Below, piece after piece: positions 13,297 through 34,444 of a stretch of DNA of 64,000 nucleotides. Origin of the DNA: a bacterium (lineage in GTDB: Bacteria > Patescibacteriota > Microgenomatia > JAMCZE01); the NCBI GenBank assembly GCA_021836035.1, contig JAKBJL010000003.1:4135-68134 (forward strand), written 5' to 3'. Position numbers and translations under genes: made by a program. Each line of letters opens with the position of its first letter. The stretch's first letter is position 1. Under the pieces are notes generated by a model, which was not told the origin of the DNA, did no database searches, and saw only the letters and a list, made by a program, of their open reading frames with translations.

Positions 13297-14077
13297 TAGA
13301 ATTATAAATTCCTGCGTGAGTCTTGCACCCTTCCGGAATGCTCACGGTCTTCGGACAACCATACTATTATACATTATAACTTCCCGCGGGGTCAACCCCG
13401 ATCGCGATTGGGGCAGGCTCCCTCAGCAGGCTATAACACTGAGCGTAGCCGAAGCGCCGTTCAATTAGTCGCCAGTTTCAGCCGAGATAATCTGGCTACA
13501 ATATCTACGTTTAGGCAGAAATAGACTCCGGCGGACTTCTCGAGTTCAACCGGTACGACCGGCAGCGCGTCCGGAATAAAATTTCTCATGTTATGGTCGG
13601 GGATTTGACCGCCGCGGTATCTATGGCGTCTACCATCGTTTTATCGAAGGTGTTTCTTTAAACCCGGTCCATATTTTGATGCTTCCGCTTCGGCTTCTAA
13701 TCTTAATCTTCGTATTTTGGGCTAAAAAGATTTGCCTGACGGGAATGCCTGTTTATGGATTGCCAATCCCGCCCATACCTGGAAAGCCGTAGCTGACAAT
13801 GCTACCATTACCTTATTCGGTTTTTCTCCCAATCATTCCTCTCCTTTAGCACGGCGGGATAAGATAATTTTACCGCGCAGGTTAATTTTTCTTTAGAACC
13901 AGCAAATGCTACTTCTGATTTATTTCTAATTTAACTTTCGCTCTGGCCGTAAAATCGGTATTTATACGCGGAACAAAGCCGATGATCTAAACTTACACAG
14001 GAAAGTAGATATTACCAATTAAGGATGAAACTACTTGAAACGGGGTACTGAACAATACAAGATTCTCTTTATCATTC

Positions 14078-15334: not shown

Positions 15335-15434
15335 TTACCGGGCAGACTTTCAGATATTAATAAATATTTTTAAAAAAAATACAAGAGGAAAATATTTGGA
15401 GAAAAGTACGGAGAATTATGTTAGATTTAAATTA

Positions 15435-17837
15435 ATGGGGCGAAATCTCCGTGTTAAATTTTTTTTAGTAATTACCTTCTTTTTGGCGTTTGTAAAACCG
15501 GTTTGGGCCGCGGATGTTTTCAGCGATAACTTCGAAAATGGTTTGGGGAATTGGCAGATAACGGCTCTGGGAAATGCGGTGGTAAATACTGCTCTGGACA
15601 CCGATCCCGGCTCTACCCATGGCAATATCCTCCATGTTTATTATCCGGGAAATAACTCCGATATCAAAATTATTTTAAAGAATTTAACTAGCTTAATTTA
15701 CGGCAAATCGAATTTAGTGTATGAGGTTGACTTTTATGACGACCCGGCCAGGGATTACGGAATTAGTTTTTATGTTCGCGATGCCTCAGGCAGATACCTG
15801 GAATTTATTGTTGATAGCCTTACCGGAAATTACCGTTTGCGAAATGATTACGGCGCGCAATCTAAATATTTTGATACCCGGATAAGCCGCAAATTAGGCT
15901 GGCATAAAATCCAGATTATCGTCAGCAGCGCGGGTGCCTATCTGGTAATTGACGGCCAGAATTCCGTTTACCTCCGCGGGCAGATTGCTTATCCCAACGT
16001 GAGTGAGATAGATTTCCCCATCTTTAACGGGCTCACGGGAATTTCCGAGGTCGGAATCGAATACCCCGCGTGGAATAAACCCGCCGGTAACAGTTACTGG
16101 GATAATTTCCGGATTTATGAACTCCGACCCCAGGCGAAAACTACTTCCCAAAAAGAGGAAGATTTAATTCTCGAATACCTGAATAGTTACGAGAGCAATC
16201 TCGGCAATGCCAATTTTCTAAACGCCGAGACTACCCTAAAAGGAATTCAGAATTTTCAACTTTCGCGCCTGGGTTTGGCAGCGGCCTATGGGGTTCGTTA
16301 TAGCGCCGGCGGCGATGTTAACGACCTGGCTAATCTGAAAAAGTATTTAACCGCCGTTATCAACGACTATTGGGCTGCCGGGGGTTGGAAAGGGCAACAA
16401 TCGGAAACGCCAATATCCGGCCAGGTTATAGCCGCCATTGCTTCCTGGCAGTGGAGCAACCTGGATACGACTCTCCGGAACAAAATTTCCGGAATATTGA
16501 ATGATATCGGCACCAATACGAACAAAAATAATTGTATAAGCTCCATGGCGGCAGGTTATGATAATAATCAGATTTCGGATAGCCGAGGAGAGGAATTTGC
16601 CTGGATTGCTTCCTACCTTAAATTTGTCTCCGATGTTTATCAGGATAAATCGGATACCCCGTCTTGCGGGGTCAACGATCCGGCTTTAACTAAATGGAGT
16701 GTGCGGGCAGCTAACTTCGCCTGTGTATCGACGACCCATGCACTTGCGACCGATCCTACTAAAATCGACCCGGGCGATATTTGTACCAGCAACCAGGCGG
16801 TCATGCCCCCCAATCCCTCCTTAACAAGTGCCTTTATCATGCGCAATCACGGAATTGATCATCCGGGTTATGCTTTGACTATTGCCTGGGGGTTGGCCCA
16901 GGCGCAACTTTATCAACTGAACCAGGGGAAAACCGAAAGCCAAATCGAAACTGATTATCGGAGGAATTTTGGTAACTTCTACACCAACAATATCTCCAAC
17001 CTCGTCCGCTTTAATAATTATTCCTATAAACCACTTACGCCGGCGGACATGATCTTTGCCTATACAGGGAAAGACGATTGGGATCAGGATGCGACGCTTC
17101 AAGATCAGGCTTGGGCCTACTTTGACATTATTTTTAAGAATCGGCCCGGCTGGAATTGGACAAATAAGCTTGACGGGATAGTTAATTATGCCTGGTTAAC
17201 ACGGGGCGGCAAAGCTTTTTATCCTCCCCTTGTTGACGGAGATTTAGCGGCCCATTGGCTTGAGCCGGAGGTAATTTCCTGCGGTCCGGGATCCTGCAAC
17301 GCTTACAAGATGAACAGCGCTCTCTATTTTTTTCTAAATTCCATGGACGCTATTGACCGCTTTGAAACACTGTTTATTATTAATCCCTCGGTTTATCCCT
17401 TGCATCTGATTTGTACTCCCAGTACCAGTTGCGGAACTAAAAACTGTGGGACAATACCTGACGGCTGCGGAGGCACCCTAAATTGTGGTCCAACCACACG
17501 GGCCTGTACGGCTGCCTTTGGGACCTGCTCTGTTACCGGAACCCAATCCTGCCAAGTCGATAATACCTACAGTCTAACCTGCACCGCTACTGATCCAAGA
17601 ACGGCCAACTGTGTCGGGAAGAACTGTGGCACTGACGGTTGTGGAGGGGTCTGTGGTACTTGTACCCTGCCCCAAGTCTGCGGCGGGGGGGGAACCCCGA
17701 ATGTTTGTGCTCCTCTCCCCGGAGATCTAAACGGAGACGGGAAAGTAAATATTACCGACCTAAAACAGCTTTTATCTTCCTTTACCAATATCTTCAATTA
17801 CAATTTAGTCGTGGCCAATTTCGGCGAAACCCAATGA
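15435..17837 (+). CDS. Large secreted protein with Cys-rich repeats and a C-terminal dockerin-like tag. First gene of a three-gene operon.
   Basis: ATG at 15435 gives the signal peptide MGRNLRVKFFLVITFFLAFVKPVWA. The track's upstream start is a TTG. C-terminal repeats KNCGTIPDGCGGTLNCG / KNCGTDGCGGVCGTC. Tag PGDLNGDGKVNITDLKQLLSSFTNIFNYNLVVANFGETQ. The stop TGA overlaps the next gene's ATG (ATGA). Confidence 0.7.
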   Translation: MGRNLRVKFFLVITFFLAFVKPVWAADVFSDNFENGLGNWQITALGNAVVNTALDTDPGSTHGNILHVYYPGNNSDIKIILKNLTSLIYGKSNLVYEVDFYDDPARDYGISFYVRDASGRYLEFIVDSLTGNYRLRNDYGAQSKYFDTRISRKLGWHKIQIIVSSAGAYLVIDGQNSVYLRGQIAYPNVSEIDFPIFNGLTGISEVGIEYPAWNKPAGNSYWDNFRIYELRPQAKTTSQKEEDLILEYLNSYESNLGNANFLNAETTLKGIQNFQLSRLGLAAAYGVRYSAGGDVNDLANLKKYLTAVINDYWAAGGWKGQQSETPISGQVIAAIASWQWSNLDTTLRNKISGILNDIGTNTNKNNCISSMAAGYDNNQISDSRGEEFAWIASYLKFVSDVYQDKSDTPSCGVNDPALTKWSVRAANFACVSTTHALATDPTKIDPGDICTSNQAVMPPNPSLTSAFIMRNHGIDHPGYALTIAWGLAQAQLYQLNQGKTESQIETDYRRNFGNFYTNNISNLVRFNNYSYKPLTPADMIFAYTGKDDWDQDATLQDQAWAYFDIIFKNRPGWNWTNKLDGIVNYAWLTRGGKAFYPPLVDGDLAAHWLEPEVISCGPGSCNAYKMNSALYFFLNSMDAIDRFETLFIINPSVYPLHLICTPSTSCGTKNCGTIPDGCGGTLNCGPTTRACTAAFGTCSVTGTQSCQVDNTYSLTCTATDPRTANCVGKNCGTDGCGGVCGTCTLPQVCGGGGTPNVCAPLPGDLNGDGKVNITDLKQLLSSFTNIFNYNLVVANFGETQ

Positions 17838-19765
17838 AGAGAATAATTTTTATTTTGTTCTTGGGAATATTTTTACTCCAGGGAAAAAAGGTCTTTGCCG
17901 CGGGATTTGCTGCACCTGCAAGGATATATGCCTCTTCGGAACTGCAGGTATCCGGGTACAACTGGAGCGCTCAAAATGTCCTGGACAACAATCCCCAAAC
18001 TGCCTGGTCGTCTAAACAACTATCCGGTCCGGATAATTCTGAATGGTTGACTTTTGATTTCGGCACTCCCGTATCCCTGGCTAAAATCATAGTCACGCCC
18101 AGAGTTTGGCAAAATCGCATTCAGGCTTTCCCGAAGGCTTTCAATATCGGCTACAGCGACGATGGCTCTACCTGGAAAATTATTCCCGGCTTTGATTTTC
18201 AAAGTTTTCCTGACCCCCAACCTAACTCTGATGGTACCGCGCCACAACTGCCATTTCCTGTTAACTCTACATATCGTTTTTTTGGCCTCGGTTTTTCCAA
18301 AGCTACCACTGACAGCTATGGGGGTTATTTTATTCAGCTGGCCGACGTCCGTTTTCTTACTAGCGAATGCACATTGGACAGCGATTGTTCCGCCGGCCAA
18401 TCCTGCCGGCAGGGAGTTTGCGGTGTCAACACTTTACCGTACTGGAATTTAAAGCCCGGCAGCTACTGGATTTTGTCCGGTACCGATAATTATAGCGGCA
18501 TTCCGCTTTCTTTTCGGCAAAGATACGATTTGGAATTACCGGAAAATATCTGCACTGACGGGTCAAACAAGAGTGTCTTAACCTGGCGCGTTACCCGAGA
18601 TGTCGCTTGCCCCTATCCCCACCAATGTTATTGGGGTAATTTAAGATTTATGTTCGTCGATCCGACAGTTGACACCAGCCCTTTTATCTGGGCCACCGCA
18701 GATAAGCGCTATACACGTAACCCGGACAGTCCATTTGCCGATATCGGTACTCTTTACCAACACAGTTATTTTAGCGGACGGTTGGATACCTCCCAACCGT
18801 ACGTGCCGCCCTATCTTTATTCGCCCAAATTCCTTCCGGGCTTAGGCAATAATCTCGAATACCGCTACAACCAAAACTATTATTGGAACTATGGCCAGCC
18901 CGGGATACCAATCGCCGATGAGAACATGTGCCGTGATACCTCGCTCGGCCGTGACCAGGCAGATTTGATTATGAGATACCAATTGACCGGCATAAATACC
19001 CCGGCGTATCATGGTCCGGCTTTATTAGTCAGTCAGGGGGAGAAGTCAAGCTGGTGTACTAGGGAAGATTGGTACTTAGCACCCAACATCGGCATTTCCA
19101 GGGTTGACCAGTGGAATTGTAATACTACCGGAAATTCCTGTTATGACGGACAGCATTTCGGCAGTTGTAACTGCAATTCCTGGACCATTGATTCCGGAAA
19201 TCACCCGAACTGCTATCAGAATTTGGCTCTACAGGATCCTGCGATGAGCATGTCCCTGGTTAAATATTATCTTGGCCATGCCTTGCAGGCTTCGGTCAAC
19301 AACACCACTTCCGTCCAAACTAACGCAAGGCAAACATTGGCTTTTAACTTTATAGATCCTTCAACCAACTTTACCTATGAGGGGCAGCTGGATACGGAAA
19401 ACAGTTTTATTTCTCCCGACGGTAATTCCCTCGTTGCTGCTGGGAAATGGAATACTTGGGTCGGAACGGACGGCAAAGTGACTATGACCATTGGCCAAAA
19501 TATTCTTCCCGGTACCTACCGCACTCGCTTCCGCCCTCATTTTTTCAGTTCGCCTGACAGCGCCTTACAAACTAATGCCGAATCTGTTACCGGGCAAAAC
19601 AACCTTCCCTGGAGCAACGAAGTAACTCTAACTATCAATCCGATTCCCGGCGACTTAAACGGCGACGGCCAGGTTAATATCGCCGATTTACGGGCCTTGC
19701 TCGGAAACTTTTCCGGCATCTTCAATTACAATTTAGTCGTGGCCAACTTTGGCAAAACCCAATGA
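17834..19765 (+). CDS. Secreted protein with an F5/8 type C (discoidin) domain and a C-terminal dockerin-like tag.
   Basis: Signal peptide MKRIIFILFLGIFLLQGKKVFA. The discoidin-like segment is YNWSAQNVLDNNPQTAWSS...WLTFDFG...YSDDGSTW. C-terminal tag PGDLNGDGQVNIADLRALLGNFSGIFNYNLVVANFGKTQ. ATGA stop/start overlaps at both ends. Confidence 0.7.
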   Translation: MKRIIFILFLGIFLLQGKKVFAAGFAAPARIYASSELQVSGYNWSAQNVLDNNPQTAWSSKQLSGPDNSEWLTFDFGTPVSLAKIIVTPRVWQNRIQAFPKAFNIGYSDDGSTWKIIPGFDFQSFPDPQPNSDGTAPQLPFPVNSTYRFFGLGFSKATTDSYGGYFIQLADVRFLTSECTLDSDCSAGQSCRQGVCGVNTLPYWNLKPGSYWILSGTDNYSGIPLSFRQRYDLELPENICTDGSNKSVLTWRVTRDVACPYPHQCYWGNLRFMFVDPTVDTSPFIWATADKRYTRNPDSPFADIGTLYQHSYFSGRLDTSQPYVPPYLYSPKFLPGLGNNLEYRYNQNYYWNYGQPGIPIADENMCRDTSLGRDQADLIMRYQLTGINTPAYHGPALLVSQGEKSSWCTREDWYLAPNIGISRVDQWNCNTTGNSCYDGQHFGSCNCNSWTIDSGNHPNCYQNLALQDPAMSMSLVKYYLGHALQASVNNTTSVQTNARQTLAFNFIDPSTNFTYEGQLDTENSFISPDGNSLVAAGKWNTWVGTDGKVTMTIGQNILPGTYRTRFRPHFFSSPDSALQTNAESVTGQNNLPWSNEVTLTINPIPGDLNGDGQVNIADLRALLGNFSGIFNYNLVVANFGKTQ

Positions 19766-22269
19766 GAAAATTTTATCTACTCTCGTGTTTGCTTTTTGTT
19801 GGCATTTTTGTATCCGCGCGGCCGGTTTTTTCCCAAATTACCCTTCCGCCGACAGATCGGGTTGATACTCACACTTTCGTTGTCTTTAATGGCAAGCTTC
19901 GGGAGCTGGTTATCAAAGGCGACAGGGTTTGGTGGCGCGATTCTGCCGACACAACGGAAAAAAGTTTTCCGGCGAACTGGAGTTCTAAATCTTTAGCCGA
20001 AGCTTGGCCGGCAAGTATTTCTCCGATTGGCCACCCCTTGCCTATCTCGGGTATAGACGCCCATGCTTATCAGCGGTTTCCCGGTTGCGGTAATTTCGCC
20101 AATTTTGTCACGGAAATTGTCATTAAGGGTAATGAAGAATGGTACCGCCGGTCATCGGATATCACCGGGAGCGACCTTGGGGGTAAAGTTTTCACCTATA
20201 CCACTCTGCCCGCCGTTTGGGGGAATTCCGGACCGCCGACCGATTTTATTGACGCTTTGAACTATGATATTTTCGACGGAAATCCGCGGGAGTTGGTTCT
20301 TAAGGGCGGTAATATTTGGTACCGGACTATAAATTGTGCCAATTCCCAGCTATCCGGCTGGTCTCAAGTCAGTTTATCTTCGGCTTGGGGGTCTAACCTA
20401 AATCCACCACCTTTAACTGGCGCCATAGATACTTATGCCACAGATTACGCTGCCTCGGACAACTCTTGGGAAATTGTCACCCAAGGTAATCGGGTTTGGG
20501 CGAGACGTTCCTTTGACACTAACAGCCACCACGAAAGTGATGTTTGGCGACCGATGACCTTAAGCGATCTCTGGCAGAGGAATTCTATTTCTCTTTCAGA
20601 TTCCGATATAGCCAGTCGGTTCATTGATAAATTTATGTCAATTTATGGCAGCACTGATTTTTCCGCTGTCATAAATTATCCTTATGCCAGCGCCTTTGAT
20701 TCCCAAAATAATTTCCGGGCTCTTATGGGTCAAGCTTTAGCGCACACCGTCAAATTCCGTTTAAGTAATAATTCTTCGGTATCCGATTTGACAAAGGCGA
20801 AAAGTTACCTCAACGCGACCCTCGACCACTATTCGACGTGGGGCAAAGATTTTCTCTCAGAAGATATTATCCGAAGTACCCTTCTTGCTTCGTGGGTAAT
20901 TTGGGACCAACTGTCGGATGTTGAAAAAGCCAATATTTACAACGTAGCTAAAGCTGATGCCGACTTCTGGTCAGCTAAATTGGCCGAAGCTCAAGCTGGT
21001 GGCCCCTTCTTATTTAAAATGCAGCGGGACTGCCAAGATCCTAACAGCCAGTGTTATTACAACACCAGCGCTGAAGAGAACGGAGGAATTGTGGGCGGGC
21101 TTGCGTTTACGGCTATTATGTATCCGAATGACCCGTCAGCCTGGAAATGGCAACAGGCGGCGAGATGTTTTGCTTTCCACACGATTACTACCGGAGAAAC
21201 TTCCTGCGGAATAACTACGCAGACAGTGGCCAGTGACTTTAGTTTGACCGAACACGGCTTCACCCCCTCGGTTGTTTATACTTTAGCCGCTCTTTCCGAG
21301 CTCGATCAGGCTGGTTTGGGCTACTTTCTCGGCGGATATTATACCCCGCCAGAACTTCACCATAACACGGCCCCTCTTTGGTCCAAATTTTTCACTTATT
21401 TTCATCCGGGAGATTACACTATCTATAATCAATATTTTCGGGGGCAGGACTGGGGCGATATTGATGTTTGGCTGGCTATGACCGATTTTAATTATTTGTC
21501 TTTAATTGACAATCCTTCAGGGTTAAGCGCTGCAAATGTAGGGAATCTAGCTTTTGACATCACGCATTATTTTTACACGATAAAGAAAGACGATCTGCGT
21601 TTTCCTGAAGCCGGACCCGTGATCTCCATGCCGGTAACGGGAACCACCACGAGCAGTTGGTTTCAAAATTCTTTAACTCACGCCAAGGGTTCTGCGGAAA
21701 TAATCATTTACCAAAACCCCGGATATTTCTTTTGTAACGGCAATGTTGACCGGCTTGGCCGGTCAACCCATTTGTGTAACAGTGCCGTCCCGGTACAGAC
21801 TTTTCCGACCTGCACCGCCACTACTTGTACCGCCCAAGGCAAAAACTGCGGGACGATTTCCGACGGCTGCTGGGGAACTTTAAACTGCGGTGCCTGTGCT
21901 GCCACCCATTCCTGTGTCAGTAATGTCTGTACCTGTGATCCGGCCAAATGTACTCTTCCCAATACCTGCAATAACAATGTTTGTTCCTGCATCCCGGAAT
22001 CAGATGTTGCTTTCTGTTCCCGTTTGGGAAAAAACTGCGGCAGTGTGACCGCAGCGGATAACTGCGGAACCCAAAGAACGGTAAGTAGCTGTGGCGGTTG
22101 TAATTTACCCGACGTCTGCGGCGGGGGAGGAACACCAAACATTTGCGGATCCCTCCCGGGAGATCTAAACGGAGACGGGAAAGTCAATATTTTGGATCTG
22201 CGCCAACTTCTTTCCGGCTCCGATACTATTTTCAGTTACAACACCGTGGTGACAAACTTCGGGAGGTGA
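19762..22269 (+). CDS. Large secreted Cys-rich protein with a C-terminal dockerin-like tag.
   Basis: Signal peptide MRKFYLLSCLLFVGIFVSARPVFS. The C-terminus carries GKNCGTISDGCWGTLNCGAC... and PGDLNGDGKVNILDLRQLLSGSDTIFSYNTVVTNFGR. A 35-nt stretch encoding GDLNGDGKVNI is near-identical to the one in 15435..17837. Confidence 0.7.
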   Translation: MRKFYLLSCLLFVGIFVSARPVFSQITLPPTDRVDTHTFVVFNGKLRELVIKGDRVWWRDSADTTEKSFPANWSSKSLAEAWPASISPIGHPLPISGIDAHAYQRFPGCGNFANFVTEIVIKGNEEWYRRSSDITGSDLGGKVFTYTTLPAVWGNSGPPTDFIDALNYDIFDGNPRELVLKGGNIWYRTINCANSQLSGWSQVSLSSAWGSNLNPPPLTGAIDTYATDYAASDNSWEIVTQGNRVWARRSFDTNSHHESDVWRPMTLSDLWQRNSISLSDSDIASRFIDKFMSIYGSTDFSAVINYPYASAFDSQNNFRALMGQALAHTVKFRLSNNSSVSDLTKAKSYLNATLDHYSTWGKDFLSEDIIRSTLLASWVIWDQLSDVEKANIYNVAKADADFWSAKLAEAQAGGPFLFKMQRDCQDPNSQCYYNTSAEENGGIVGGLAFTAIMYPNDPSAWKWQQAARCFAFHTITTGETSCGITTQTVASDFSLTEHGFTPSVVYTLAALSELDQAGLGYFLGGYYTPPELHHNTAPLWSKFFTYFHPGDYTIYNQYFRGQDWGDIDVWLAMTDFNYLSLIDNPSGLSAANVGNLAFDITHYFYTIKKDDLRFPEAGPVISMPVTGTTTSSWFQNSLTHAKGSAEIIIYQNPGYFFCNGNVDRLGRSTHLCNSAVPVQTFPTCTATTCTAQGKNCGTISDGCWGTLNCGACAATHSCVSNVCTCDPAKCTLPNTCNNNVCSCIPESDVAFCSRLGKNCGSVTAADNCGTQRTVSSCGGCNLPDVCGGGGTPNICGSLPGDLNGDGKVNILDLRQLLSGSDTIFSYNTVVTNFGR

Positions 22270-22291
22270 ATTTTGTGCTAAAGTTAAATTA

Positions 22292-23500
22292 ATGGGCAAA
22301 AGCGTAGGTTTTGTTTTGCGGGTAGTTTTCGTCCTTTCTTTTCTTTCGGCCTTCTTATTTTTATCCTTGAATCCGGTTCAAGCCTACAACATTTTCAATC
22401 AGAGCCTGCATGAGCAAAACTAACTTTCTTTTATTAAGGCCGTTTCCAACCGCTATATAAATATTAATCCGTTTCCGGACTATACAATAGCCAAAAGCGG
22501 AGGGTTAACTGATTATTACCGGGTAGTTTGCAGCCAGGTGGTCATTAGTTCGATCAGCAAACTGGCGGCAGGGCAACCCCTTTCCGCAAATTCTCCGGAG
22601 ATGGGATTGATGATGGCCAATTTCAATAATGATTTCAACCAAATCGCTAGCCCGAATAATCCTTGGTTCTGGCTGGCCTCCGCCCCCGGATTTGATTGTC
22701 TGATTGCTCTTGACCTTAACCGGGACGTTATCCCGCTTCAGGCCAGAAACGCTGCTCTCGGCGAGATAAATATTCTGGCAGACATTATATACAACCCCTT
22801 TAATCGAATTACCTGCTGATTCGACCTGGTTGATGAAATACACTACAGGAACCTGGAGAAATGAAGCTATCGCTAACTACAATTGGACGTCGGTAAACGA
22901 CGACTACCGCCAGGTTACTACGCTTAATCAATTTGGCCTGACTCTTATGGATTCCTCCGCTTTTATGCCAGCTTTTACCGGCTGGCAATATCAAATTATG
23001 ACGGTGACCGATAGTTACCTGGTTGCTTTTAAGGACATGATTCCGGAAGTCGCCAGGCTGTTAGGTGATTACGTTAAAGCCGATGCGGATATATATATAA
23101 ATAAGATAGCGGCGGCTAAATCCGATTGGTACAGTTCGTTGACAGAATCCTACTACGGAAACGAACATGGTCAGGTCTATCCGGTTGATGCTTATCAGCT
23201 TTTCCTGGCCAGGTCCTGGATCGACAAAGAATCTCCTGATAACCCGCGCATTATTTAAGTATTCCCTATACCCCGGTTGGGGACTTCTTTTATATGCAAA
23301 AGCTGGCCGAGACCATTAAAGCTTACCGGGGTTGGGCCTGGTCTGACGGGGGAGGGCCGACTCCGCCGCTGACCCTTGCCGGAGACCTAAACGGAGATAA
23401 CCACGTCGATATTGCCGATTTAAGAATCGCCATTGCGGGGTTCAGCAATCTTTACAACATATATAGTATCTCGGAAATAATCGGTAATTTCGGTAAATAA
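22292..23500 (+). pseudogene. Decayed paralog of the dockerin-tagged secreted proteins, broken into at least four frame-shifted pieces.
   Basis: A 43-codon ORF from ATG 22292 encodes only a signal peptide (MGKSVGFVLRVVFVLSFLSAFLFLSLNPVQA) and then stops. Co-directional ORFs 22538..22819, 22830..23258 and 23294..23500 lie in different frames. The last is a standalone dockerin-like tag, LAGDLNGDNHVDIADLRIAIAGFSNLYNIYSISEIIGNFGK. Confidence 0.45.
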
Positions 23501-23565
23501 GCAGAACCATATTGGTACTTGCAATGCATGTGAAAAATTTGCTAGGCTGGAATTAGCCTGTAAAA

Positions 23566-24750
23566 ATGAAAATAACGGAGCGGTTGGGGTTACTTAAGTT
23601 AGCGAAACGCAACTGGACAATGTTGTTGGTGGTTGGAATTCTCCTTATCTCTCTCGTGGCTACAGTTTTTCTGGTTCAGCGACAACAGCAAATGCGGGGT
23701 AAAGCGGCCGGAGCCAGCGTTACTTTAGCTATGTCTTCGGCGGTAAATTCTACAAACCATGCGATGGTAGGAACTCCTTTCACTGTCAATGTATCTATCG
23801 GCAATCAAACGGATGCTTACGAAATTTCCGCCGCTAATGTGGTCGTAACTTATGATTCTAATCTTTTAGACCTGGGTACCAATCCGGTTGCCCTGGGCAG
23901 CTTTTTCCCCTTTCCCAGCGGAACGGAAATGCTTAACAAAGTAGATACGGCAACGGCGGGCAGGGTGAGTTTTGCCTTGGGCGCGGCTTGTCCTACCGTT
24001 ATCCCGGCTCCGACCCCCGTCAACGGCCAAACTCCCTGTTCGACTAATAGAGGCTCCGGAATTTTAGCCACGCTCAATTTCGTCCCCAAAGCGGCCGGTA
24101 CAGCCAATGTGGCTATTATTGCGGATAGCGGTAATACCGCGATAGCGGCTGTCGGGCAGACGGCAACCGTACTGACAAGTACTGCTGTTTCTCCGCTCAG
24201 CCTGCCGATCGATCCCGCGCCGGTGACTACTCCCACCCTTTCCTTCTCGGTGACCGTTCAGGAAGCCATTACGATTCCTACCACCCCCCGCGGAACTATG
24301 GCAGCGAATTTGACTCTTTTAAACCCCACAACCGGTGCCGTTGTTGGCTCTCCGTTTAGTATCACCATGAGCCAAAACAGAACCAGCGGTTTGTATGAGA
24401 CCACCTCTCCGGTTGTTCTAACAGGCATAACTCCCGGCTCTTATCGGGTCATGCTTGATGGGGTAGGGCATTTGAAAAAGGAACTGACAAAGGTTAATGG
24501 TGTTTCTACGCCCGTAAATTTAGTTGGTGGATCCAATACTCCCGACTGGAAGGCCCAACAACTTTTTGGTGGCGATGCGATCAAGGATACGGCAAATACG
24601 GTTAACGCTTTAGATTTCGGGAAACTGGCCGGGGATTTCTTAAACTCTGCTACCCAGGGGACCAGTACGGCAGACTTTAACTTTGATGGCCGGGTGGATG
24701 CGCTGGATTTTGGTGCTTTAGCAGGAAATTTCCTGAAAGCAGGAGATTAA
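23566..24750 (+). CDS. N-terminally membrane-anchored cohesin-domain protein with a C-terminal Ig-like module and a two-segment dockerin. Adaptor/scaffoldin-like.
   Basis: Signal-anchor TM MLLVVGILLISLVATVFLV. The cohesin-like domain (VGTPFTVNVSIGNQ...VVVTYDSNLLDL...GILATLNFVPKAAGTANV) follows the spacing of cellulosomal cohesins (YDPxxL, G.F.KI.AxxK). The C-terminus has a duplicated dockerin segment, NTVNALDFGKLAGDFL / DFNFDGRVDALDFGALAGNFL. Confidence 0.65.
   Translation: MKITERLGLLKLAKRNWTMLLVVGILLISLVATVFLVQRQQQMRGKAAGASVTLAMSSAVNSTNHAMVGTPFTVNVSIGNQTDAYEISAANVVVTYDSNLLDLGTNPVALGSFFPFPSGTEMLNKVDTATAGRVSFALGAACPTVIPAPTPVNGQTPCSTNRGSGILATLNFVPKAAGTANVAIIADSGNTAIAAVGQTATVLTSTAVSPLSLPIDPAPVTTPTLSFSVTVQEAITIPTTPRGTMAANLTLLNPTTGAVVGSPFSITMSQNRTSGLYETTSPVVLTGITPGSYRVMLDGVGHLKKELTKVNGVSTPVNLVGGSNTPDWKAQQLFGGDAIKDTANTVNALDFGKLAGDFLNSATQGTSTADFNFDGRVDALDFGALAGNFLKAGD
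24231..24750. repeat. Copy 1 of a 520-bp near-identical direct repeat encoding the shared C-terminal Ig-like + dockerin module.
   Basis: Sequence tcccaccctttccttctcggtgaccgttcaggaagccattacg ... gcaggagattaa. It matches 26866..27385 with a single mismatch seen by eye (cctaccacc vs cccaccacc). Confidence 0.8.
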
Positions 24751-24754
24751 GAGA

Positions 24755-27385
24755 ATGGAAAAAATAGCAAGCTGGAAAACGATTGGATTATTGCTAGTTA
24801 CTTTATTAGTTGTTATTGCGGTGCCGCTGACGACCCGGCAGGTTAGTAATCGTCAGGAAACAAGAACCAAAGCGGTTTCTGGCCCCGGGGTAGCGGATTT
24901 AGCTCTCAGTCCGGCAAGTTTAACCTCATACTACACAAGTATAACAACAAACTCAACTTTTGATGTAAATGTTACGCTAGACACCGGTACTACCCCCATA
25001 TATGCCGTTGATGTTGCCTTACAATTTGATCCGACGACCCTTCAGGTAGTACCGGATCCTGCAGTAGCGGGGGGAAATGGTATCACTCCGGGAACTATAT
25101 TAGCTCAGATTCTTTATAATAAAATTGACAATGCTTTGGGTAGAATTACCTTTTCTGCCGGATCTTCGCCTATAGGATCTACTTATACCGGTACGGGGGT
25201 AATAGCTTCAATAAAATTTAGAGCTCTTAAAGCTGTGGCTGCTACCAACGTAACTTTCCTTCCTACAACTTTGGTTTCCGACGTAAATAGTTCAAATATA
25301 TTAGGAACTACAACAAACGGTTCTTATACCATCACTTTAGATACGACAGGTCCCGTCGCGCCCACACCGCAGAGCCCGGCCGATGCCGGTTATCAGGTCA
25401 GCGGCAATGTAAATCTTACCTGGTCCGCCTCAACAGATACCCAAAGCGGGTTTGACCATTATGAACTGCAATATGCTAATAACAGTGCCTTTACCAGTCC
25501 TACCACGGTAAATAATATTACCGCAACTTCTGCCTCCATCAGTTTATCTGCCGATAGCCCTTATTATTGGCAAGTCCGGGCTTATGATAAGTTGGGCAAT
25601 GTCAGCAATTGGAGTTCAGCCTGGAATTTTATTTTAGATACTACCCCCCCGGGAGTTCCCGCTCTTTCCGCACCGGCTAATGGTTATTTACAAACCAGCA
25701 GAACGGTTCCTTTAAGCTGGACGATCCCTACCGATGCCAACGGTATTGCCAGCTATAAAATTCAAGTGGCTAATAATTCCAATTTTACCGGAGCAACGGA
25801 ATATACGGTTACCACAAACAGCTACTCTGTAACCGTCGCTACTGACGGTCAATATTTCTGGCATGTTCAGGCAGTCGATCTGGCCGGGAATAATGGCACT
25901 TATTCTGTCAATCGCAATTTTACGATAGATGGTACGGTGCCGACTTTACCTGGGCTTTTAACTCCGACAAATGCATCTAACCTTAACACTCTAACTCCGA
26001 CTTTTACCTGGAACGCGTCCAGCGATACCGGTTCCGGAGTAGACCATTATGATTTACAGACTTCCCTAACCAGTACTTTTGCCACTCCCACTAACAATCA
26101 AATTGTCGGAACAGCTACTTCCTTTACTTTACCGTCTGGGGTAATTACCGCCGATAACGTCTATTATTGGCGCTTGCAGGCGGCAGACGTAGCTGGCAAT
26201 GTAAGCGGCTGGACTGTTTATCGTAGTATGACGGTAGATACTACTGCCCCCGGAGTTCCTACTCTTAATCCCGTGGCTATTACTGCGGGATCCAGGACAG
26301 TAAGTTTTTCTTGGTCAGTGGTCACAGATAGTGGCAGCGGATTAGCCAATTATGAGATCCAGGTTGATGCGGATAGCTCCATTACACCGCCATATACCTA
26401 TAGTGCGACTCCGACATCAACAACCGCTAGTACAACTTTGTCCGCTGACGGCACCTATTATTGGCACGTCCGGGCTATTGACAAAGCGGGGAATATCGGA
26501 GCTTGGTCAACAGCGCAACCGTTTGGCATTGATATTACACCCCCGACCGCTATCAGTAATCTCTCTGCCGGTTCGCCGACTACCACCTCTGTCGTCTTAA
26601 CCTGGACCGCACCTAATGCTAATCCGGGAAATGGTACCGCTTACGATATTCGCTATTCTACCAGTTCGATTACCGGTACTAATTTCTCTTCAGCTACGGC
26701 AGTTGCAAATCCGCCGACCCCTGCGGCTGCCGGATCGGCCGAATCTCTGACGGTTTCTAATCTTACTCCCGGTACTACTTATTATTTCGCCCTCAAAACG
26801 CAGGATGCAAACAGCAATTGGTCCATTATTTCTAACGTCGTAAGCCTGGCTACCAGCCAGCCGATTCCCACCCTTTCCTTCTCGGTGACCGTTCAGGAAG
26901 CCATTACGATTCCCACCACCCCCCGCGGAACTATGGCAGCGAATTTGACTCTTTTAAACCCCACAACCGGTGCCGTTGTTGGCTCTCCGTTTAGTATCAC
27001 CATGAGCCAAAACAGAACCAGCGGTTTGTATGAGACCACCTCTCCGGTTGTTCTAACAGGCATAACTCCCGGCTCTTATCGGGTCATGCTTGATGGGGTA
27101 GGGCATTTGAAAAAGGAACTGACAAAGGTTAATGGTGTTTCTACGCCCGTAAATTTAGTTGGTGGATCCAATACTCCCGACTGGAAGGCCCAACAACTTT
27201 TTGGTGGCGATGCGATCAAGGATACGGCAAATACGGTTAACGCTTTAGATTTCGGGAAACTGGCCGGGGATTTCTTAAACTCTGCTACCCAGGGGACCAG
27301 TACGGCAGACTTTAACTTTGATGGCCGGGTGGATGCGCTGGATTTTGGTGCTTTAGCAGGAAATTTCCTGAAAGCAGGAGATTAA
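24755..27385 (+). CDS. N-terminally membrane-anchored cohesin-domain protein with about 6 FN3-like repeats and the shared C-terminal Ig-like + dockerin module.
   Basis: TM LLLVTLLVVIAVPL. Cohesin-like segment (FDVNVTLDTGTTPIYAVDVALQFDPTTLQVV...GVIASIKFRALKA). Repeated FN3 signature YYWQVRAYDKLGNVSNWS / YFWHVQAVDLAGNNGTYS / YYWRLQAADVAGNVSGWT / YYWHVRAIDKAGNIGAWS. The last 173 aa are identical to the C-terminus of 23566..24750. Confidence 0.7.
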   Translation: MEKIASWKTIGLLLVTLLVVIAVPLTTRQVSNRQETRTKAVSGPGVADLALSPASLTSYYTSITTNSTFDVNVTLDTGTTPIYAVDVALQFDPTTLQVVPDPAVAGGNGITPGTILAQILYNKIDNALGRITFSAGSSPIGSTYTGTGVIASIKFRALKAVAATNVTFLPTTLVSDVNSSNILGTTTNGSYTITLDTTGPVAPTPQSPADAGYQVSGNVNLTWSASTDTQSGFDHYELQYANNSAFTSPTTVNNITATSASISLSADSPYYWQVRAYDKLGNVSNWSSAWNFILDTTPPGVPALSAPANGYLQTSRTVPLSWTIPTDANGIASYKIQVANNSNFTGATEYTVTTNSYSVTVATDGQYFWHVQAVDLAGNNGTYSVNRNFTIDGTVPTLPGLLTPTNASNLNTLTPTFTWNASSDTGSGVDHYDLQTSLTSTFATPTNNQIVGTATSFTLPSGVITADNVYYWRLQAADVAGNVSGWTVYRSMTVDTTAPGVPTLNPVAITAGSRTVSFSWSVVTDSGSGLANYEIQVDADSSITPPYTYSATPTSTTASTTLSADGTYYWHVRAIDKAGNIGAWSTAQPFGIDITPPTAISNLSAGSPTTTSVVLTWTAPNANPGNGTAYDIRYSTSSITGTNFSSATAVANPPTPAAAGSAESLTVSNLTPGTTYYFALKTQDANSNWSIISNVVSLATSQPIPTLSFSVTVQEAITIPTTPRGTMAANLTLLNPTTGAVVGSPFSITMSQNRTSGLYETTSPVVLTGITPGSYRVMLDGVGHLKKELTKVNGVSTPVNLVGGSNTPDWKAQQLFGGDAIKDTANTVNALDFGKLAGDFLNSATQGTSTADFNFDGRVDALDFGALAGNFLKAGD
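26866..27385. repeat. Copy 2 of the 520-bp direct repeat.
   Basis: See 24231..24750. The repeat ends exactly at both stop codons, and the downstream sequences differ. Confidence 0.8.
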
Positions 27386-27427
27386 CGGTTGACAGCCCGT
27401 AAAATATTATCATAACATTAACTGAAG

Positions 27428-28090
27428 ATGACAAATATAAATAAAAAAGGAGAGTTGATCACGGTAGGTTTATTAGTAATCGCGGTAGCAGCAGTCAGTT
27501 TGGTGGCAGGGATGGTCTTAGGATTAAATAAAATTAACTTAAAACTACCGGTGACTTCTCAAGTAGAAAATAATCAGGGAAATAATAACGGCAAACCACA
27601 GATTCCGGAAGTACGAAATACTCCTGAAATAAAAAATAAGCCCAAGCTCTCTCTGACCGCTGTTCCGAGCACAATAGCGGTCGGCCAAAATACTAACGTA
27701 ACCATTAATATAGATTCCAACGGGAACAAGCTTCAGGTTGTTCAATTAACCCTGAGTTTTGATCCTAAAAAGCTGAAGGTAGTTGACGCTGATCCTAAGG
27801 CTGCCGGGGTACAGATAGAGCTAAAAAATTTATTTGCTAATCAGAATAACCTTGCGAATCGAGCGGATAACGATAAAGGGAAAATAACCTTAGCCATCGG
27901 TAGCCTGACTAATACTTTTGATGGTAAAGGAGTTTACGGAATAATAAAAATGATCGCTTTGCAACCTACTTCTAGTCCGACGATGATTAGTTTTGACCCA
28001 GACCCAGATACTTTGGTTGTTCCCCAGAGGGCTAATCAGGCTGCCAAAATTGAAGAAGAGCCCTTATCTTTAAGCATTAGCCCTAAATGA
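27428..28090 (+). CDS. Membrane-anchored single-cohesin-domain protein.
   Basis: TM LITVGLLVIAVAAVSLVAGMVLGL. Cohesin-like segment LTAVPSTIAVGQNTNVTINIDSNGNKLQVVQLTLSFDPKKLKVV...GKGVYGIIKMIALQ. Confidence 0.6.
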   Translation: MTNINKKGELITVGLLVIAVAAVSLVAGMVLGLNKINLKLPVTSQVENNQGNNNGKPQIPEVRNTPEIKNKPKLSLTAVPSTIAVGQNTNVTINIDSNGNKLQVVQLTLSFDPKKLKVVDADPKAAGVQIELKNLFANQNNLANRADNDKGKITLAIGSLTNTFDGKGVYGIIKMIALQPTSSPTMISFDPDPDTLVVPQRANQAAKIEEEPLSLSISPK

Positions 28091-29577
28091 GAAGATACAT
28101 TTCTTTAATTATCCTAACTCTTTTTCTGCTTGCAGCGGTACCGGCGACCTATTATTTAGTACAAAATAGGCAGTTGTTCTTTAAAAAAGCAGCTCCTACC
28201 GCTACCCTCGCTTTAACTCCGGCTTCTGGAAGCCATGCTGTCGGAGATATTTTTGACGTACAAATAGCGATGGATACCGGCGGGAATCTGGCATTTATGT
28301 CACAAACCTCAATTTCTTATAATCCGTCACTGCTGGATGTCGTTGACGCATCAGGAAATCCAGCAACTTCGATAATTCCCGGAACTGTTTTCCCCAGTCA
28401 ATATGTGGCTACTAATACTGTAAACGCTTCAAGTGGGACAATTATGTTAGCGGTAGGAAGCACTGCGGGATTTAGCGGATCGGGAACGGTAGGAACAATA
28501 AAATTCAAAGTCAAGGCGGCAGGAACTGCTGAGGTCAAATTTAATCCTGCCCCGGATACCTTAATTGGAGGTGCTAATGGAGAAAGTTTAGCCGGTACTC
28601 TAAGTGATGCCAGTTATACTCTAGCCGGCGGTGGAGCGGCGTTGGATTGTACCGGAGTGACGATTTCGCCGGCAGGTAATAATGTTACTTTGGGAGCGAC
28701 CAAGACTCTCACGGCTGCAGCTACCGGAGGAACGGGGACAATTACTTACACCTGGGGGGTTACCAGCCCCGGATCAAATAAGGGTAATTTGACTCCGACT
28801 ACCGGTGCGACGGTAACTTGGACTGCGCCTGCAAACCTTAATTCCGCGCAAACCTGGACAATTACCGCTACAGCCCATGACGATACGACGACCGATTCCA
28901 CCGGTTGTATGGTTAATTTGACCTATACGCCGGTTATTAGTACCCCGACCAATACACCGACCAATATTCCTAGCAGTACCCCGACGGATACACCAACCAA
29001 TACCCCAACCAACACTCCGCCGGTAAGCTCCGCACCCGGCCCGCAAACATATCAGCATAAGACTTGCCAAGCAAATAGCTGTGTCACGGTCGATTGTTCA
29101 CCGAAAGACCATTATTGTGCTGACAGCTGTACCAGCGACAGCGGTTGTACGGGCGGTACCGGAGGTTCGGTAAGCGTGACCATTACCAGTATTGCCCAGG
29201 GCGCGGTTTTAACTAATGCCCGACCGACGGTTGCCGGGAAAGCTTCCCCGGGAGCCAGTGTCCAAGTTACACTTTATCCGGCGCCGACTCAAAGCGGAAC
29301 GATCACGGCGGACGGTGTAGGTAATTGGTCCTGGGTGCCCAATGCCGCGCTGGCTAACGGCGCCCACTCCGCGACGGTGATTGCGACTGACGGGACGGGC
29401 AACCGGACACAAGCGCAGATCGACTTTACCATCAGGACAACCACGGCAAGTACCGGTGGCACGGGGGAGACTACAGGGAAAGTTACCCCACCGGAAACTG
29501 CCTCCTATACGCCGACGGTCGTGATGGCGGTTCTCGGCTTTGCCCTTCTCGGTTTGGGACTGGTTTTGGCTTTGTAG
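28087..29577 (+). CDS. Cohesin-domain surface protein with N-terminal and C-terminal TM segments, a Thr/Pro-rich linker and an Ig-like domain.
   Basis: N-terminal TM ISLIILTLFLLAAV. Cohesin-like segment VGDIFDVQIAMDTGGNLAFMSQTSISYNPSLLDVVD...GTVGTIKFKVKAAGTAEV. Linker PTNTPTNIPSSTPTDTPTNTPTNTPP. Ig-like region VTITSIAQGAVL...ATVIATDGTGN. C-terminal hydrophobic anchor VVMAVLGFALLGLGLVLAL. Confidence 0.6.
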   Translation: MRRYISLIILTLFLLAAVPATYYLVQNRQLFFKKAAPTATLALTPASGSHAVGDIFDVQIAMDTGGNLAFMSQTSISYNPSLLDVVDASGNPATSIIPGTVFPSQYVATNTVNASSGTIMLAVGSTAGFSGSGTVGTIKFKVKAAGTAEVKFNPAPDTLIGGANGESLAGTLSDASYTLAGGGAALDCTGVTISPAGNNVTLGATKTLTAAATGGTGTITYTWGVTSPGSNKGNLTPTTGATVTWTAPANLNSAQTWTITATAHDDTTTDSTGCMVNLTYTPVISTPTNTPTNIPSSTPTDTPTNTPTNTPPVSSAPGPQTYQHKTCQANSCVTVDCSPKDHYCADSCTSDSGCTGGTGGSVSVTITSIAQGAVLTNARPTVAGKASPGASVQVTLYPAPTQSGTITADGVGNWSWVPNAALANGAHSATVIATDGTGNRTQAQIDFTIRTTTASTGGTGETTGKVTPPETASYTPTVVMAVLGFALLGLGLVLAL

Positions 29578-33700: not shown

Positions 33701-34444
33701 GGGGACGGTCCTTTAATTTGTTGACAATACAATTAAGACATATCACAATTTGTTAAGTATGCCGCGCGGTCCTCGTCTTGCATTAAAAAATGCATTCTAC
33801 CGTGTTTTTAACCGCGGAATTAACAAACAGGATATTTTTATCCAGCCGGTGGATTACGTTTTTTCCTAAAAAGATTAATAAAATTGAAGGAGAAATATGA
33901 CTTTTCATTGTATGCCGTATGCCTCCTGCCGAATCATTTCCATCTTTCTCTCCAAACGCGCAAGGATCCTATCTTGCAGATAATGTCCTCGTTGGCTACC
34001 GGATTTTCAATGTATTATAACCGCGCTTATTCTCACTTTGGTCCAGTTTTTCAAAATAGATATAAAAGTATTCTCATTCAAAATGAAGCATATTTTATCC
34101 AGCTCTCGCAATATATTTATTTAAATCCTGTGTTAGCGGGATTGGTATCCGACCCGGTAAATTATTCCTACAGTACTTTTGGCGAAGCTATCGGATTACG
34201 CCCTTTGCATCTATTAGACACGGCTATTGTCCGCTTGATCGGCGAAACAAAACATTCGAAAGAGGAGTATAGAAAATTTGTTTATGAAGGCATGAATGCC
34301 GATTTTTCCGGATACGGAAAAGTTATTTATGGAAGAGGAGGCAGTACTCGGGAATAATTTGTTTGCTATGGGGGTCAGGAGAAAATACGTCTCGAGAAGT
34401 CATTAATATAATTTGCCCCGACAATTAATTCTAGGACCGTCCCC
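33701..34444. mobile_element. IS200/IS605-family (Y1 transposase) element bounded by a 12-bp inverted repeat, GGGGACGGTCCT / AGGACCGTCCCC.
   Basis: Inverted copies of ggggacggtcc sit at 33701-33711 and 34434-34444. The only gene between them is the IS200-like tnpA. Total length is about 744 bp. Confidence 0.6.
33759..34357 (+). pseudogene. tnpA: IS200/IS605 TnpA (Y1 HUH transposase) with a 1-nt frameshift in a T6 run (33859-33864).
   Basis: Frame 1 reads MPRGPRLALKNAFYRVFNRGINKQDIFIQPVDYVF and then stops. One added T gives ...DYVFFLKRLIKLKEKYDFSLYAVCLLPNHFHL... continuing into ORF 33884..34357 (HxH motif NHFHL; catalytic-Tyr region FQNRYKSILIQNE). Confidence 0.6.

Follow-up and report, generated by a model that had tools for sequence, protein, structure and literature searches.

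Clostridial cellulosomes are anchored to the cell surface by the X-module–dockerin (XDoc) dyad, which is known as ultra-stable. Bacterial paralogues that undergo gene conversion and concerted evolution include tufA/tufB in Salmonella and the surface-antigen cassettes of Neisseria. Peer et al., in FEMS Microbiol Lett in 2009, reportedly described non-cellulosomal cohesin and dockerin modules dispersed among bacteria and archaea. In C. thermocellum, ScaA and CipB both bear an XDoc and have one set of type II cohesins as their common binding partners (PMC5141474). Our literature searches on dockerins in combination with gene conversion, and on the accessions, found nothing relevant.

We analyzed a window of 64 kb (the whole stretch of DNA under study) from an uncultured bacterium, possibly a member of the CPR/Patescibacteria, in which two neighboring genes for cell-surface proteins, A and B, the leading pair of a conserved cluster, end in the same module. 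The best profile and fold matches of this module are the scaffoldin XDocs (C. thermocellum ScaA/CipA and CipB, A. cellulolyticus ScaA; 2B59, 5G5D, 5K39, 4U3S, 4WI0, 3KCP/4FL4). As in these dyads, an Ig-like sandwich of ~100 aa precedes a dockerin of ~65 aa that has two loop–helix motifs and a linker of ~21 residues, and a cohesin-bearing protein carries the dyad at its C-terminal end. Each genome likewise has two XDoc carriers, which in C. thermocellum serve the same anchoring cohesins (PMC5141474) and are predicted to do so here. Unlike the scaffoldin XDocs, which it resembles at just 15–20% identity to the solved dyads, the module occurs in an uncultured host, its A and B carriers have an N-terminal hydrophobic helix, FN3 arrays are found among the carriers, and dockerin loop 1 contains a two-residue insertion. 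At the cluster we found one cohesin per protein and no CBM (including CBM3), no multi-cohesin scaffoldin, and no recognized dockerin-bearing glycoside hydrolases. The locus would act like a cellulosome anchor, yet it is not a cellulosome.

With non-cellulosomal cohesins and dockerins the locus shares the occurrence of single modules on surface proteins of cellulosome-free organisms; unlike those scattered modules, it is a conserved cluster of two XDoc carriers and two cohesin-only proteins. The same composite module is found in the Chthonomonadaceae MAG CBDFGA01 (33–41% identical over residues ~40–172), where it is C-terminal on at least 14 proteins and very uniform within the genome, but there it tags many unrelated large proteins genome-wide and not a cohesin-bearing gene pair. 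As we interpret it below, the locus also resembles tufA/tufB and the Neisseria cassettes in non-reciprocal copying between paralogues, in synonymous-site identity, and in sharp limits at the ends of homology. It differs from both in that only a C-terminal interaction module would have been converted, the remaining architectures being different, and in that we see no sign of programmed variation.

Gene cluster and shared C-terminal module

The genes of the cluster and their upstream neighbors are as follows.

15435 to 22269, forward strand: three genes (15435–17837, 17834–19765, and 19762–22269) for large secreted proteins, each with the same ~40-aa single-loop dockerin-like C-terminal tag
23566 to 24750, forward strand: gene A, 394 aa; from the N-terminus, a hydrophobic helix, a cohesin bearing a Cys-containing insertion, a short linker, and the XDoc
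24755 to 27385, forward strand: gene B, 876 aa; from the N-terminus, a hydrophobic helix, a cohesin, an FN3/Ig-like array, and the XDoc
27428 to 28090, forward strand: gene C, 220 aa; N-terminal transmembrane helix and one cohesin; candidate docking partner
28087 to 29577, forward strand: gene D, 496 aa; signal/anchor helix, cohesin-like domain, Big_13, transmembrane helix at the C-terminus; candidate both for the membrane anchor and for the docking partner

Gene B starts 4 nt beyond the gene A stop, and its array comprises about six FN3/Ig-like repeats by eye, with three fn3 stretches recognized by Pfam. The initial annotation described A and B as adjacent cohesin genes, and both assignments hold. 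The B cohesin matches Pfam Cohesin (PF00963) at 40.8 bits and the A cohesin at 24.4 bits (cut-off 24.1); in the AF2 model of the A N-terminal part (pLDDT 72), the top 38 PDB matches are cohesins, with a target-normalized TM of up to 0.78, and include 2XDH from A. fulgidus as well as 2VO8 and 2JH2 from C. perfringens. The cohesin typing of C and D leans on matches of E ~0.03–0.05, namely ScaE cohesin 2zf9 for C (E 0.046) and type II cohesin 1qzn for D (E 0.027). The D protein of the window has no Pfam Cohesin match. Its orthologue in the related genome L016, for which Pfam Cohesin is recorded, is 51% identical to it over the first 200 aa, and we call the D domain cohesin-like because of this homology together with the weak 1qzn match. 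A scan with the gene D cohesin returned six loci; two modules were present in only one of them, an already-known locus.

The C-terminal module had been described as Ig-like plus dockerin. Profile and structure searches agree and allow a more precise assignment: judged from sequence profiles and a predicted model, its 172 aa are an XDoc dyad, in which an Ig-like β-sandwich X-module is joined to a dockerin. A profile built from 42 family members gives 4u3s_B (E 2.4e-11), 4wi0_B, 2b59_B (2.3e-10), 3kcp_A, 5g5d_B, and 5k39_B as top matches, and the alignments to XDoc chains cover both the X-module and the dockerin parts (profile positions 39–153, E 2e-11 to 4e-8). The AF2 model of the module has a pLDDT of 94.8, and its top six Foldseek PDB matches are all full-length XDoc dyads (probability 1.00, TM ~0.55). 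Against PF00404, the module alone scores 24.0 bits (cut-off 22.9), and the two full-length proteins fall slightly under the cut-off, at 22.3 and 21.4 bits; 28 of the 42 family members match this family, with a best E of 2.7e-9. Three members match CarboxypepD_reg, the fold class of X-modules (PMC5141474). In the model, the dockerin helices span residues 126–135 and 157–165, each with a loop ahead of it. The second loop, DFNFDGRVDALD, is canonical, and the first, GDAIKDTANTVNALD, is two residues longer than the family consensus through its insertion and may not bind calcium.

The 520-bp repeat and its assembly

The module is encoded by a direct repeat with the following parts.

24231 to 24750, forward strand: repeat copy 1, XDoc that closes gene A, TAA stop included; X-module ~24232–24555, dockerin ~24556–24747; putative recipient
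26866 to 27385, forward strand: repeat copy 2, XDoc that closes gene B, TAA stop included; X-module ~26867–27190, dockerin ~27191–27382; putative donor
24279, forward strand: the difference between the copies, T here and C at 26914; the phasing is the same in contig 4 of GCA_027371575.1

Base-by-base comparison at an offset of 2635 and BLASTN of the window against itself both confirm the 520-bp near-identical direct repeat with one mismatch that had been reported by eye: 519 of 520 nt are identical (99.8%). The sole mismatch is synonymous (Pro, CCT/CCC), a count that is possibly a lower bound, as the interior of copy 2 (26992–27244) is known only from repeat-resolving assemblies. The two copies share the same codon phase, starting at codon position 3 and ending with the TAA stop. 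The peptide had been given as 173 aa; the two genes do encode an identical peptide, but that length includes the partial first codon, and each copy has 172 complete codons. Comparison of the copies gives a dS of ~0.01 and a dN of 0. As originally noted, both copies end at stop codons and have unrelated flanks. The limits are sharp, in that the base 5' of the repeat and the base 3' of TAA already differ and flank identity is at chance level. The 5' limit lies one to two codons ahead of the first X-module strand, and the identical tract, from the first conserved X-module strand to the stop codon, comprises the entire stretch over which A and B can be aligned. Within the 64 kb this pair is by far the strongest repeat by BLASTN self-comparison, the runner-up being 71% identical over 660 nt. 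A repeat scan picked up the initial 300 nt as directly repeated and detected no inverted repeats.

Near-identity of this kind could in principle be created by an assembler that reused or duplicated one collapsed module, in which case the genome would have one copy or two clearly different copies; the initial annotation had pointed to such an artefact. The source is a metagenome assembly, and the repeat is not crossed in three other public assemblies, both of which would be compatible with an artefact. The contigs of these assemblies, however, are 100% identical to the window and break at the repeat by k-mer length (77, 141, and 30–31), as is expected of a true branching repeat. Contig 4 of GCA_027371575.1 ends at 26991, exactly 77 nt past the SNP, and in that assembly contig 1 begins at 27309 and so contains the final 77 nt of the repeat. 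The corresponding start points are 27245 for a MEGAHIT k141 contig (final 141 nt) and 27356 for a Logan contig (final 30 nt). Because the contigs of three assemblies each stop at the repeat by their own k, we regard it as a true two-copy repeat. In addition, the two 5' junctions were each assembled out of unique sequence along with the SNP that distinguishes the copies 48 nt into the repeat, T being phased with the flank of A and C with that of B. The two 3' junctions, one with the start of B and the other with gene C, were likewise assembled out of unique sequence. The complete 876-aa protein is recorded on two contigs and the 394-aa protein on three, and the relatives described below predict an XDoc end for both genes. 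An assembly artefact thus appears unlikely, and we assign it only a slim chance.

Origin of the repeat

The cluster, or the A/B pair, occurs with the same gene order in five relatives (L016, L017/18/19, L020/21, L022, and L035), all five of which carry an XDoc on both A and B. Within these genomes, the X parts of A and B are only 26–49% identical in amino acid sequence (pS 0.68–0.84), whereas the dockerins are 69–92% identical, their pS being 0.33 in L022 and 0.65–0.80 in the other four. Dockerins of A and B average 79% identity within a genome vs 43–44% between genomes. The X-module has no such within-genome conservation (37% within vs 33–36% between). At the DNA level, A- and B-type X-modules of the relatives are 40–52% identical and the dockerin 3' ends 68–85%, and L022 has a nearly identical A/B 3' stretch of ~110 nt. 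Judged from these genomes, the A/B architecture is ancestral and the two modules are normally diverged.

Because the modules of the relatives have diverged and their synonymous sites are saturated, the identity in the window is probably the product of a recent non-reciprocal replacement, that is, of gene conversion in the broad sense. The earlier proposal of recent gene conversion or cassette exchange is borne out in that five syntenic relatives have clearly diverged modules of their own in both genes.

An old duplication held identical by purifying selection for docking would have some basis, since the dockerins of the relatives are 69–92% identical as proteins despite saturated synonymous sites and selection for likeness therefore exists. 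However, synonymous sites are identical in the window as well (dS ~0.01), which protein-level selection cannot yield, and the X-module is 100% identical here yet unconserved within the genomes of the relatives. An explanation by selection only is ruled out by the synonymous-site identity, and we give the old duplication next to no weight. Similarly negligible is the probability that a mobile or horizontally acquired cassette was inserted independently into A and B. A fragment of an IS200-like Y1 transposase downstream of the repeat could be taken to favor such a cassette, but the module has no inverted or flanking repeats, no Rfam element was found in the region, and both copies are in frame and replace the ancestral module at the orthologous position. 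Moreover, when 1.84 billion representatives were searched exhaustively with HMMER, only these two proteins showed more than 50% identity to the module. The mobile-element explanation was rejected given the in-frame orthologous position and the lack of flanking repeats and of an Rfam element.

Several features bear on the direction of the replacement. The X-module of the window is nearest to the long B type (38% identical to L016 B vs 23% to L016 A), and the module carries B-type insertions of four residues before TLTG and of three to seven after HL+K+. In a neighbor-joining tree it groups with L036_B, L016_B, and L020_B at bootstrap values of 40–60%. From the shared indels and this weakly supported tree, we infer that B was the donor and A the recipient.

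The mechanism of the replacement could have been independent of homology, with the B 3' module copied over the A end by illegitimate recombination or replication template switching. Such an event would account for a tract that starts where A- and B-type modules have little DNA identity in the relatives and whose two ends match domain or gene limits. On the other hand, the dockerin 3' ends of the relatives retain their 68–85% DNA identity, and a stretch like the ~110 nt of L022 would provide a homologous anchor for invasion. We consider a homology-independent event rather improbable, although less so than an artefact, and regard it as a variant of recent non-reciprocal replacement and not as a true alternative, because the outcome looks alike under either mechanism. 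Since the tract covers the whole alignable region, its 5' junction was resolved at low A/B DNA identity. Classical RecA-dependent conversion does not easily account for this, and an event based on microhomology or template switching suits the junction equally well.

A putative docking system and its consequences

The likeness of A and B dockerins within genomes, at ~43% between genomes, suggests that the two have a common cohesin partner, and it predicts a common binding specificity of the A and B proteins. By analogy to cellulosomal scaffoldins, the XDoc would serve as a calcium-dependent plug through which A and B attach to a cohesin, the likeliest being that of membrane-anchored D or that of C. 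A and B would then have to use one common socket. A socket in common could explain why A and B dockerins are alike in every genome examined, and why wholesale copying of the module, presumably an overwriting of the gene A module by that of gene B as the indels and tree indicate, was tolerated or even favored. The three tagged proteins encoded upstream are possibly cargo of the same system; they match no GH family and have only F5/8 type C or no Pfam match.

We tentatively propose, as an idea that could well prove wrong, that the cluster (cohesin–XDoc proteins A and B, cohesin-only proteins C and D) represents a system for surface assembly that is specific to a lineage of uncultured bacteria and new to the literature. 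In such a system, two adaptors would share one anchoring socket, and their dockerins would evolve in concert, staying identical or nearly so within each genome, and be reset by episodic whole-module gene conversion, one event of which would have been caught here almost at time zero. The conversion itself is clean but fairly ordinary, and its setting is a cellulosome-like cluster outside the usual cellulose degraders. The locus offers a well-documented natural case of domain-level concerted evolution, in which an interaction module is copied between neighbors of otherwise different architecture, and it extends the range of the XDoc dyad to an uncultured lineage without a cellulosome.

Two direct copies are predicted to make gene B deletable by homologous recombination. 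The initial annotation saw in the repeat a substrate for deletion or inversion that would fuse or remove the FN3-rich gene. Deletion and removal stand. Inversion does not, as a direct repeat yields deletion or duplication only, and neither does fusion, as recombination would drop B cleanly and leave A intact beside gene C. The repeat fragments short-read assemblies of the organism at a predictable place and leaves gene B deletion-prone.

Three further observations concern the surroundings of the cluster. A promoter and terminator scan returned a single promoter-like site, 5' of gene C (27389–27418), with no evidence of function. The IS200-like Y1 transposase fragment lies at 33884–34357, ~6.5 kb downstream of the repeat. 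For the Ddl protein, identity to named relatives does not exceed ~62%, and these relatives are spread over many phyla, among them Levybacteria, Paceibacterota, and KSB1.

The repeat and the module that it encodes

When the window was compared against itself with a shift of 2635 nt, an unbroken match appeared between 24231 to 24750 and 26866 to 27385, with a sole mismatch at 24279 (T) vs 26914 (C). BLASTN of the window against itself agrees, returning a 520-nt repeat of 99.8% identity that is by far the strongest in the 64 kb; a repeat scan of the window also lists the direct repeat for its first 300 nt and found no inverted repeats. Both copies start at a third codon position and run through to an ORF's TAA stop, and beyond both ends base identity is at chance level only. 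The near-identical direct repeat described in the initial annotation, with one mismatch, ends at stop codons and unrelated flanks, is therefore confirmed. The mismatch is synonymous (CCT/CCC), and the 172 complete codons encode an identical peptide. Elsewhere, a direct repeat of about 650 nt (595-1246 vs 2453-3098, 71% identical) lies in minus-strand beta-helix (NosD-like) genes that appear to be diverged tandem paralogues.

The two copies form the 3' ends of genes A and B, the first of four neighboring surface-protein genes. XDoc denotes the X-module-dockerin dyad encoded by the repeat.

23566-24750, + strand, gene A: 394 aa; N-terminal hydrophobic helix, cohesin, XDoc
24755-27385, + strand, gene B: 876 aa; hydrophobic helix, cohesin (40.8 bits), FN3/Ig-like repeat array, XDoc
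27428-28090, + strand, gene C: transmembrane helix and cohesin
28087-29577, + strand, gene D: cohesin-like N-terminal domain, Big_13, C-terminal transmembrane helix

The Pfam score of the gene A cohesin is slightly over threshold, and the assignment is confirmed at the level of the predicted fold, for which cohesins are the top 38 PDB matches. Gene D has no Pfam Cohesin match of its own in the window; it is called cohesin-like from a match to the type II cohesin 1qzn (E 0.027, weak and a hint only) and from its orthologue at locus L016 of a relative, which has a recorded Pfam Cohesin. The gene C cohesin weakly matches the XDoc-binding ScaE cohesin 2zf9 (E 0.046, again a hint only), and those of A and B gave no match in the same search. 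MurF and Ddl follow the cluster, indicating that the locus is chromosomal DNA.

The shared module had been annotated as Ig-like plus dockerin, a correct description for which XDoc is the more precise name. Pfam places Dockerin_1 at module residues 122-163 (24.0 bits vs a cut-off of 22.9). When 1.84 billion representatives were searched exhaustively with HMMER, the module turned up in 145 proteins, ending 10 residues or fewer from the C-terminus in 111 of them; only the window's own two proteins exceeded 50% identity to it. A profile built from 42 family members matches solved X-module-dockerin dyads from cellulosomal scaffoldins over both module halves (4u3s_B, E 2.4e-11; 2b59_B, E 2.3e-10; also 4wi0_B, 3kcp_A, 5g5d_B, and 5k39_B). 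The AlphaFold2 model on the same alignment (pLDDT 94.8) shows a beta-sandwich to about residue 110, then helices at 126-135 and 157-165, and its best six PDB matches are all XDoc dyads (probability 1.00, TM about 0.55). This agrees with the published layout (PMC5141474), in which a seven-stranded Ig-like X-module of about 98 residues precedes a dockerin made of two F-hand motifs and a linker of 23 residues. Dockerin loop 1 (24574-24618, 27209-27253) has two inserted residues compared with the family, and loop 2 is canonical.

The repeat in other assemblies

The exact locus proteins are also present in other public assemblies. Contig DAHXMT010000004.1 (GCA_027371575.1) is 100% identical to 13566-26991 and stops exactly 77 nt beyond the copy-specific base 26914; DAHXMT010000001.1 of the same assembly begins at 27309, with the final 77 nt of the repeat. 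MEGAHIT contig k141_342022 (ENA ERZ27233560) begins at 27245 (final 141 nt) and a Logan contig of SRR13170411 at 27356 (final 30 nt); all three match the window at 100% identity. Contig ends of this kind, k bases into a repeated stretch, mark a real branching node of a de Bruijn graph.

Both repeat entries are assembled from unique sequence, T with the A flank and C with the B flank, as are both exits, into the start of B and into gene C. Records place the full-length 876-aa product of B on two contigs and the 394-aa A product on three; the longest contig carrying these products is 199,429 bp. For the interior of copy 2, the sequence comes only from assemblies able to resolve the repeat. Given the k-length breaks, the unique entries and exits, and the recorded full-length products, it is unlikely that the repeat is an assembly duplication artefact.

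Probable recent copying of one module over the other

The A/B pair occurs at five relatives' loci. The order A-B-C-D is present in L016 and L020/21; L035 has A-B-C before its contig ends, L017/18/19 has A and B followed by one more gene without a recorded Pfam match, and L022 has a small cohesin gene between A and B. A further locus, L036, has part of the gene order. In every one of these loci, XDoc ends both A and B.

Divergence between A and B modules within a genome
Comparison; amino acid identity; pS
X-modules, five relatives; 26-49%; 0.68-0.84
Dockerins, four relatives; 69-92%; 0.65-0.80
Dockerins, L022; 88%; 0.33
Whole module, window; 100%; about 0.01 (dN 0)

On these sequences, the only reading that fits is that one module of the window would recently have been replaced by the other, because selection at the protein level cannot erase synonymous differences and because the X-module has no within-genome conservation in the relatives. 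The proposal of recent gene conversion or cassette exchange is thus supported by A and B modules that are diverged in five relatives and have a pS of about 0.01 in the window. In L022, the final ~38 dockerin codons (approximately 7320-7435 vs 9210-9326) are almost identical in DNA, with 3 differences, against a diverged remainder; the pattern resembles a short conversion tract at the 3' end, like the window event on a smaller scale.

With moderate confidence, the copying would have run from B, as donor, into A, as recipient. Among X-modules, those of long-B-type genes resemble the window module most (38% to L016 B and 31-33% to L020 B, vs 23% to L016 A and 30-32% to L020 A), and the window module has their insertions as well: four residues ahead of the TLTG strand and three to seven past the HL+K+ motif. 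A neighbor-joining tree groups it with L036_B, L016_B, and L020_B at a bootstrap of only 40-60%.

The identical tract is all that A- and B-type modules share: it begins with the strand TLxFxV, the first that is conserved, and runs through the stop codon. Its 3' end is easily explained, as dockerin 3' ends of A and B in the relatives have 68-85% DNA identity and homology stops at the stop codon. The 5' end falls where the relatives' A/B identity in DNA is only 40-52%, and resolution at this end must have relied on minimal homology or on template switching. Classical conversion and microhomology-mediated cassette replacement would give the same outcome and are not separable here.

Recombination between the 520-bp direct copies can delete 2635 bp. 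Of the anticipated deletion or inversion that would fuse or remove the FN3-rich gene, the deletion stands: B would be removed exactly, leaving A intact ahead of C. No fusion results, and direct repeats do not invert. Downstream of the repeat, at a distance of about 6.5 kb, is a truncated IS200-like Y1 transposase ORF (33884-34357, 157 aa, partial profile match); GCA_027371575.1 has a 149-aa gene call there despite identical DNA.

Both XDoc dyads and gene conversion among bacterial paralogues are well known. Modestly new would be an XDoc-cohesin gene cluster conserved among uncultured bacteria without a cellulosome, the within-genome likeness of its two dockerins, and a very fresh whole-module conversion.

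Dockerin likeness and a possible docking scheme

Across the five relatives, A and B dockerins average 79% identity within a genome and only 43-44% between genomes, whether A-A, B-B, or A-B. X-modules show no such effect (37% within vs 33-36% between). Synonymous sites are saturated in most within-genome dockerin pairs, so either selection or old homogenisation keeps them alike. It points to a common cohesin partner for the A and B dockerins. A precedent is Clostridium thermocellum, in which the anchoring scaffoldins' type II cohesins serve as binding partners of both the ScaA and the CipB XDoc (PMC5141474).

In the arrangement that we infer, D, anchored by its C-terminal helix, would present the socket, perhaps together with C; A and B would plug in through XDoc, and each would then display its own cohesin. 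Three large secreted proteins encoded upstream of A, each with a C-terminal single-loop dockerin-like tag, may be cargo for these cohesins.

15435-17837, + strand, first secreted-protein gene
17834-19765, + strand, second secreted-protein gene
19762-22269, + strand, third secreted-protein gene

The tag (about 40 aa, PGDLNGDGKVNIxDLxxLLxxFxxIFNYNLVVANFGxTQ) ends all three proteins and is the only part common to them; the first and third also share ~28% identity across roughly 600 aa. Its nucleotide repeats (17670-17753 with 22108-22191, 17790-17844 with 19718-19771) are 85-91% identical. A gene upstream of the operon in L017 (6368-7972) encodes the same kind of C-terminal tag.

A composite tag related to the window module is abundant in the Chthonomonadaceae MAG CBDFGA01, where at least 14 large, otherwise unrelated proteins across the genome (L001-L014) carry a very uniform C-terminal sandwich-plus-dockerin module (...ADFNFDGFVDSSDFTLLIGxFNNxG) 33-41% identical to that of the window. 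It looks like a genome-wide C-terminal docking tag.

A promoter-like site (27389-27418; TTGACA, 18 nt spacer, TAACAT; consensus match only) lies just past the B stop, upstream of C, so C and D may also be transcribed on their own. A, B, and D (23566-23720, 24755-24880, 28087-28200) and their relatives (L016, L017, L020, L022, L035, L036) have a common N-terminal hydrophobic helix, followed just before the cohesin by a conserved motif, (Y/F)L(V/T)x(Q/R)xQ...R(K/S)(K/R)AA(G/P). Together, helix and motif may act as a sorting or cleavage signal specific to the lineage.
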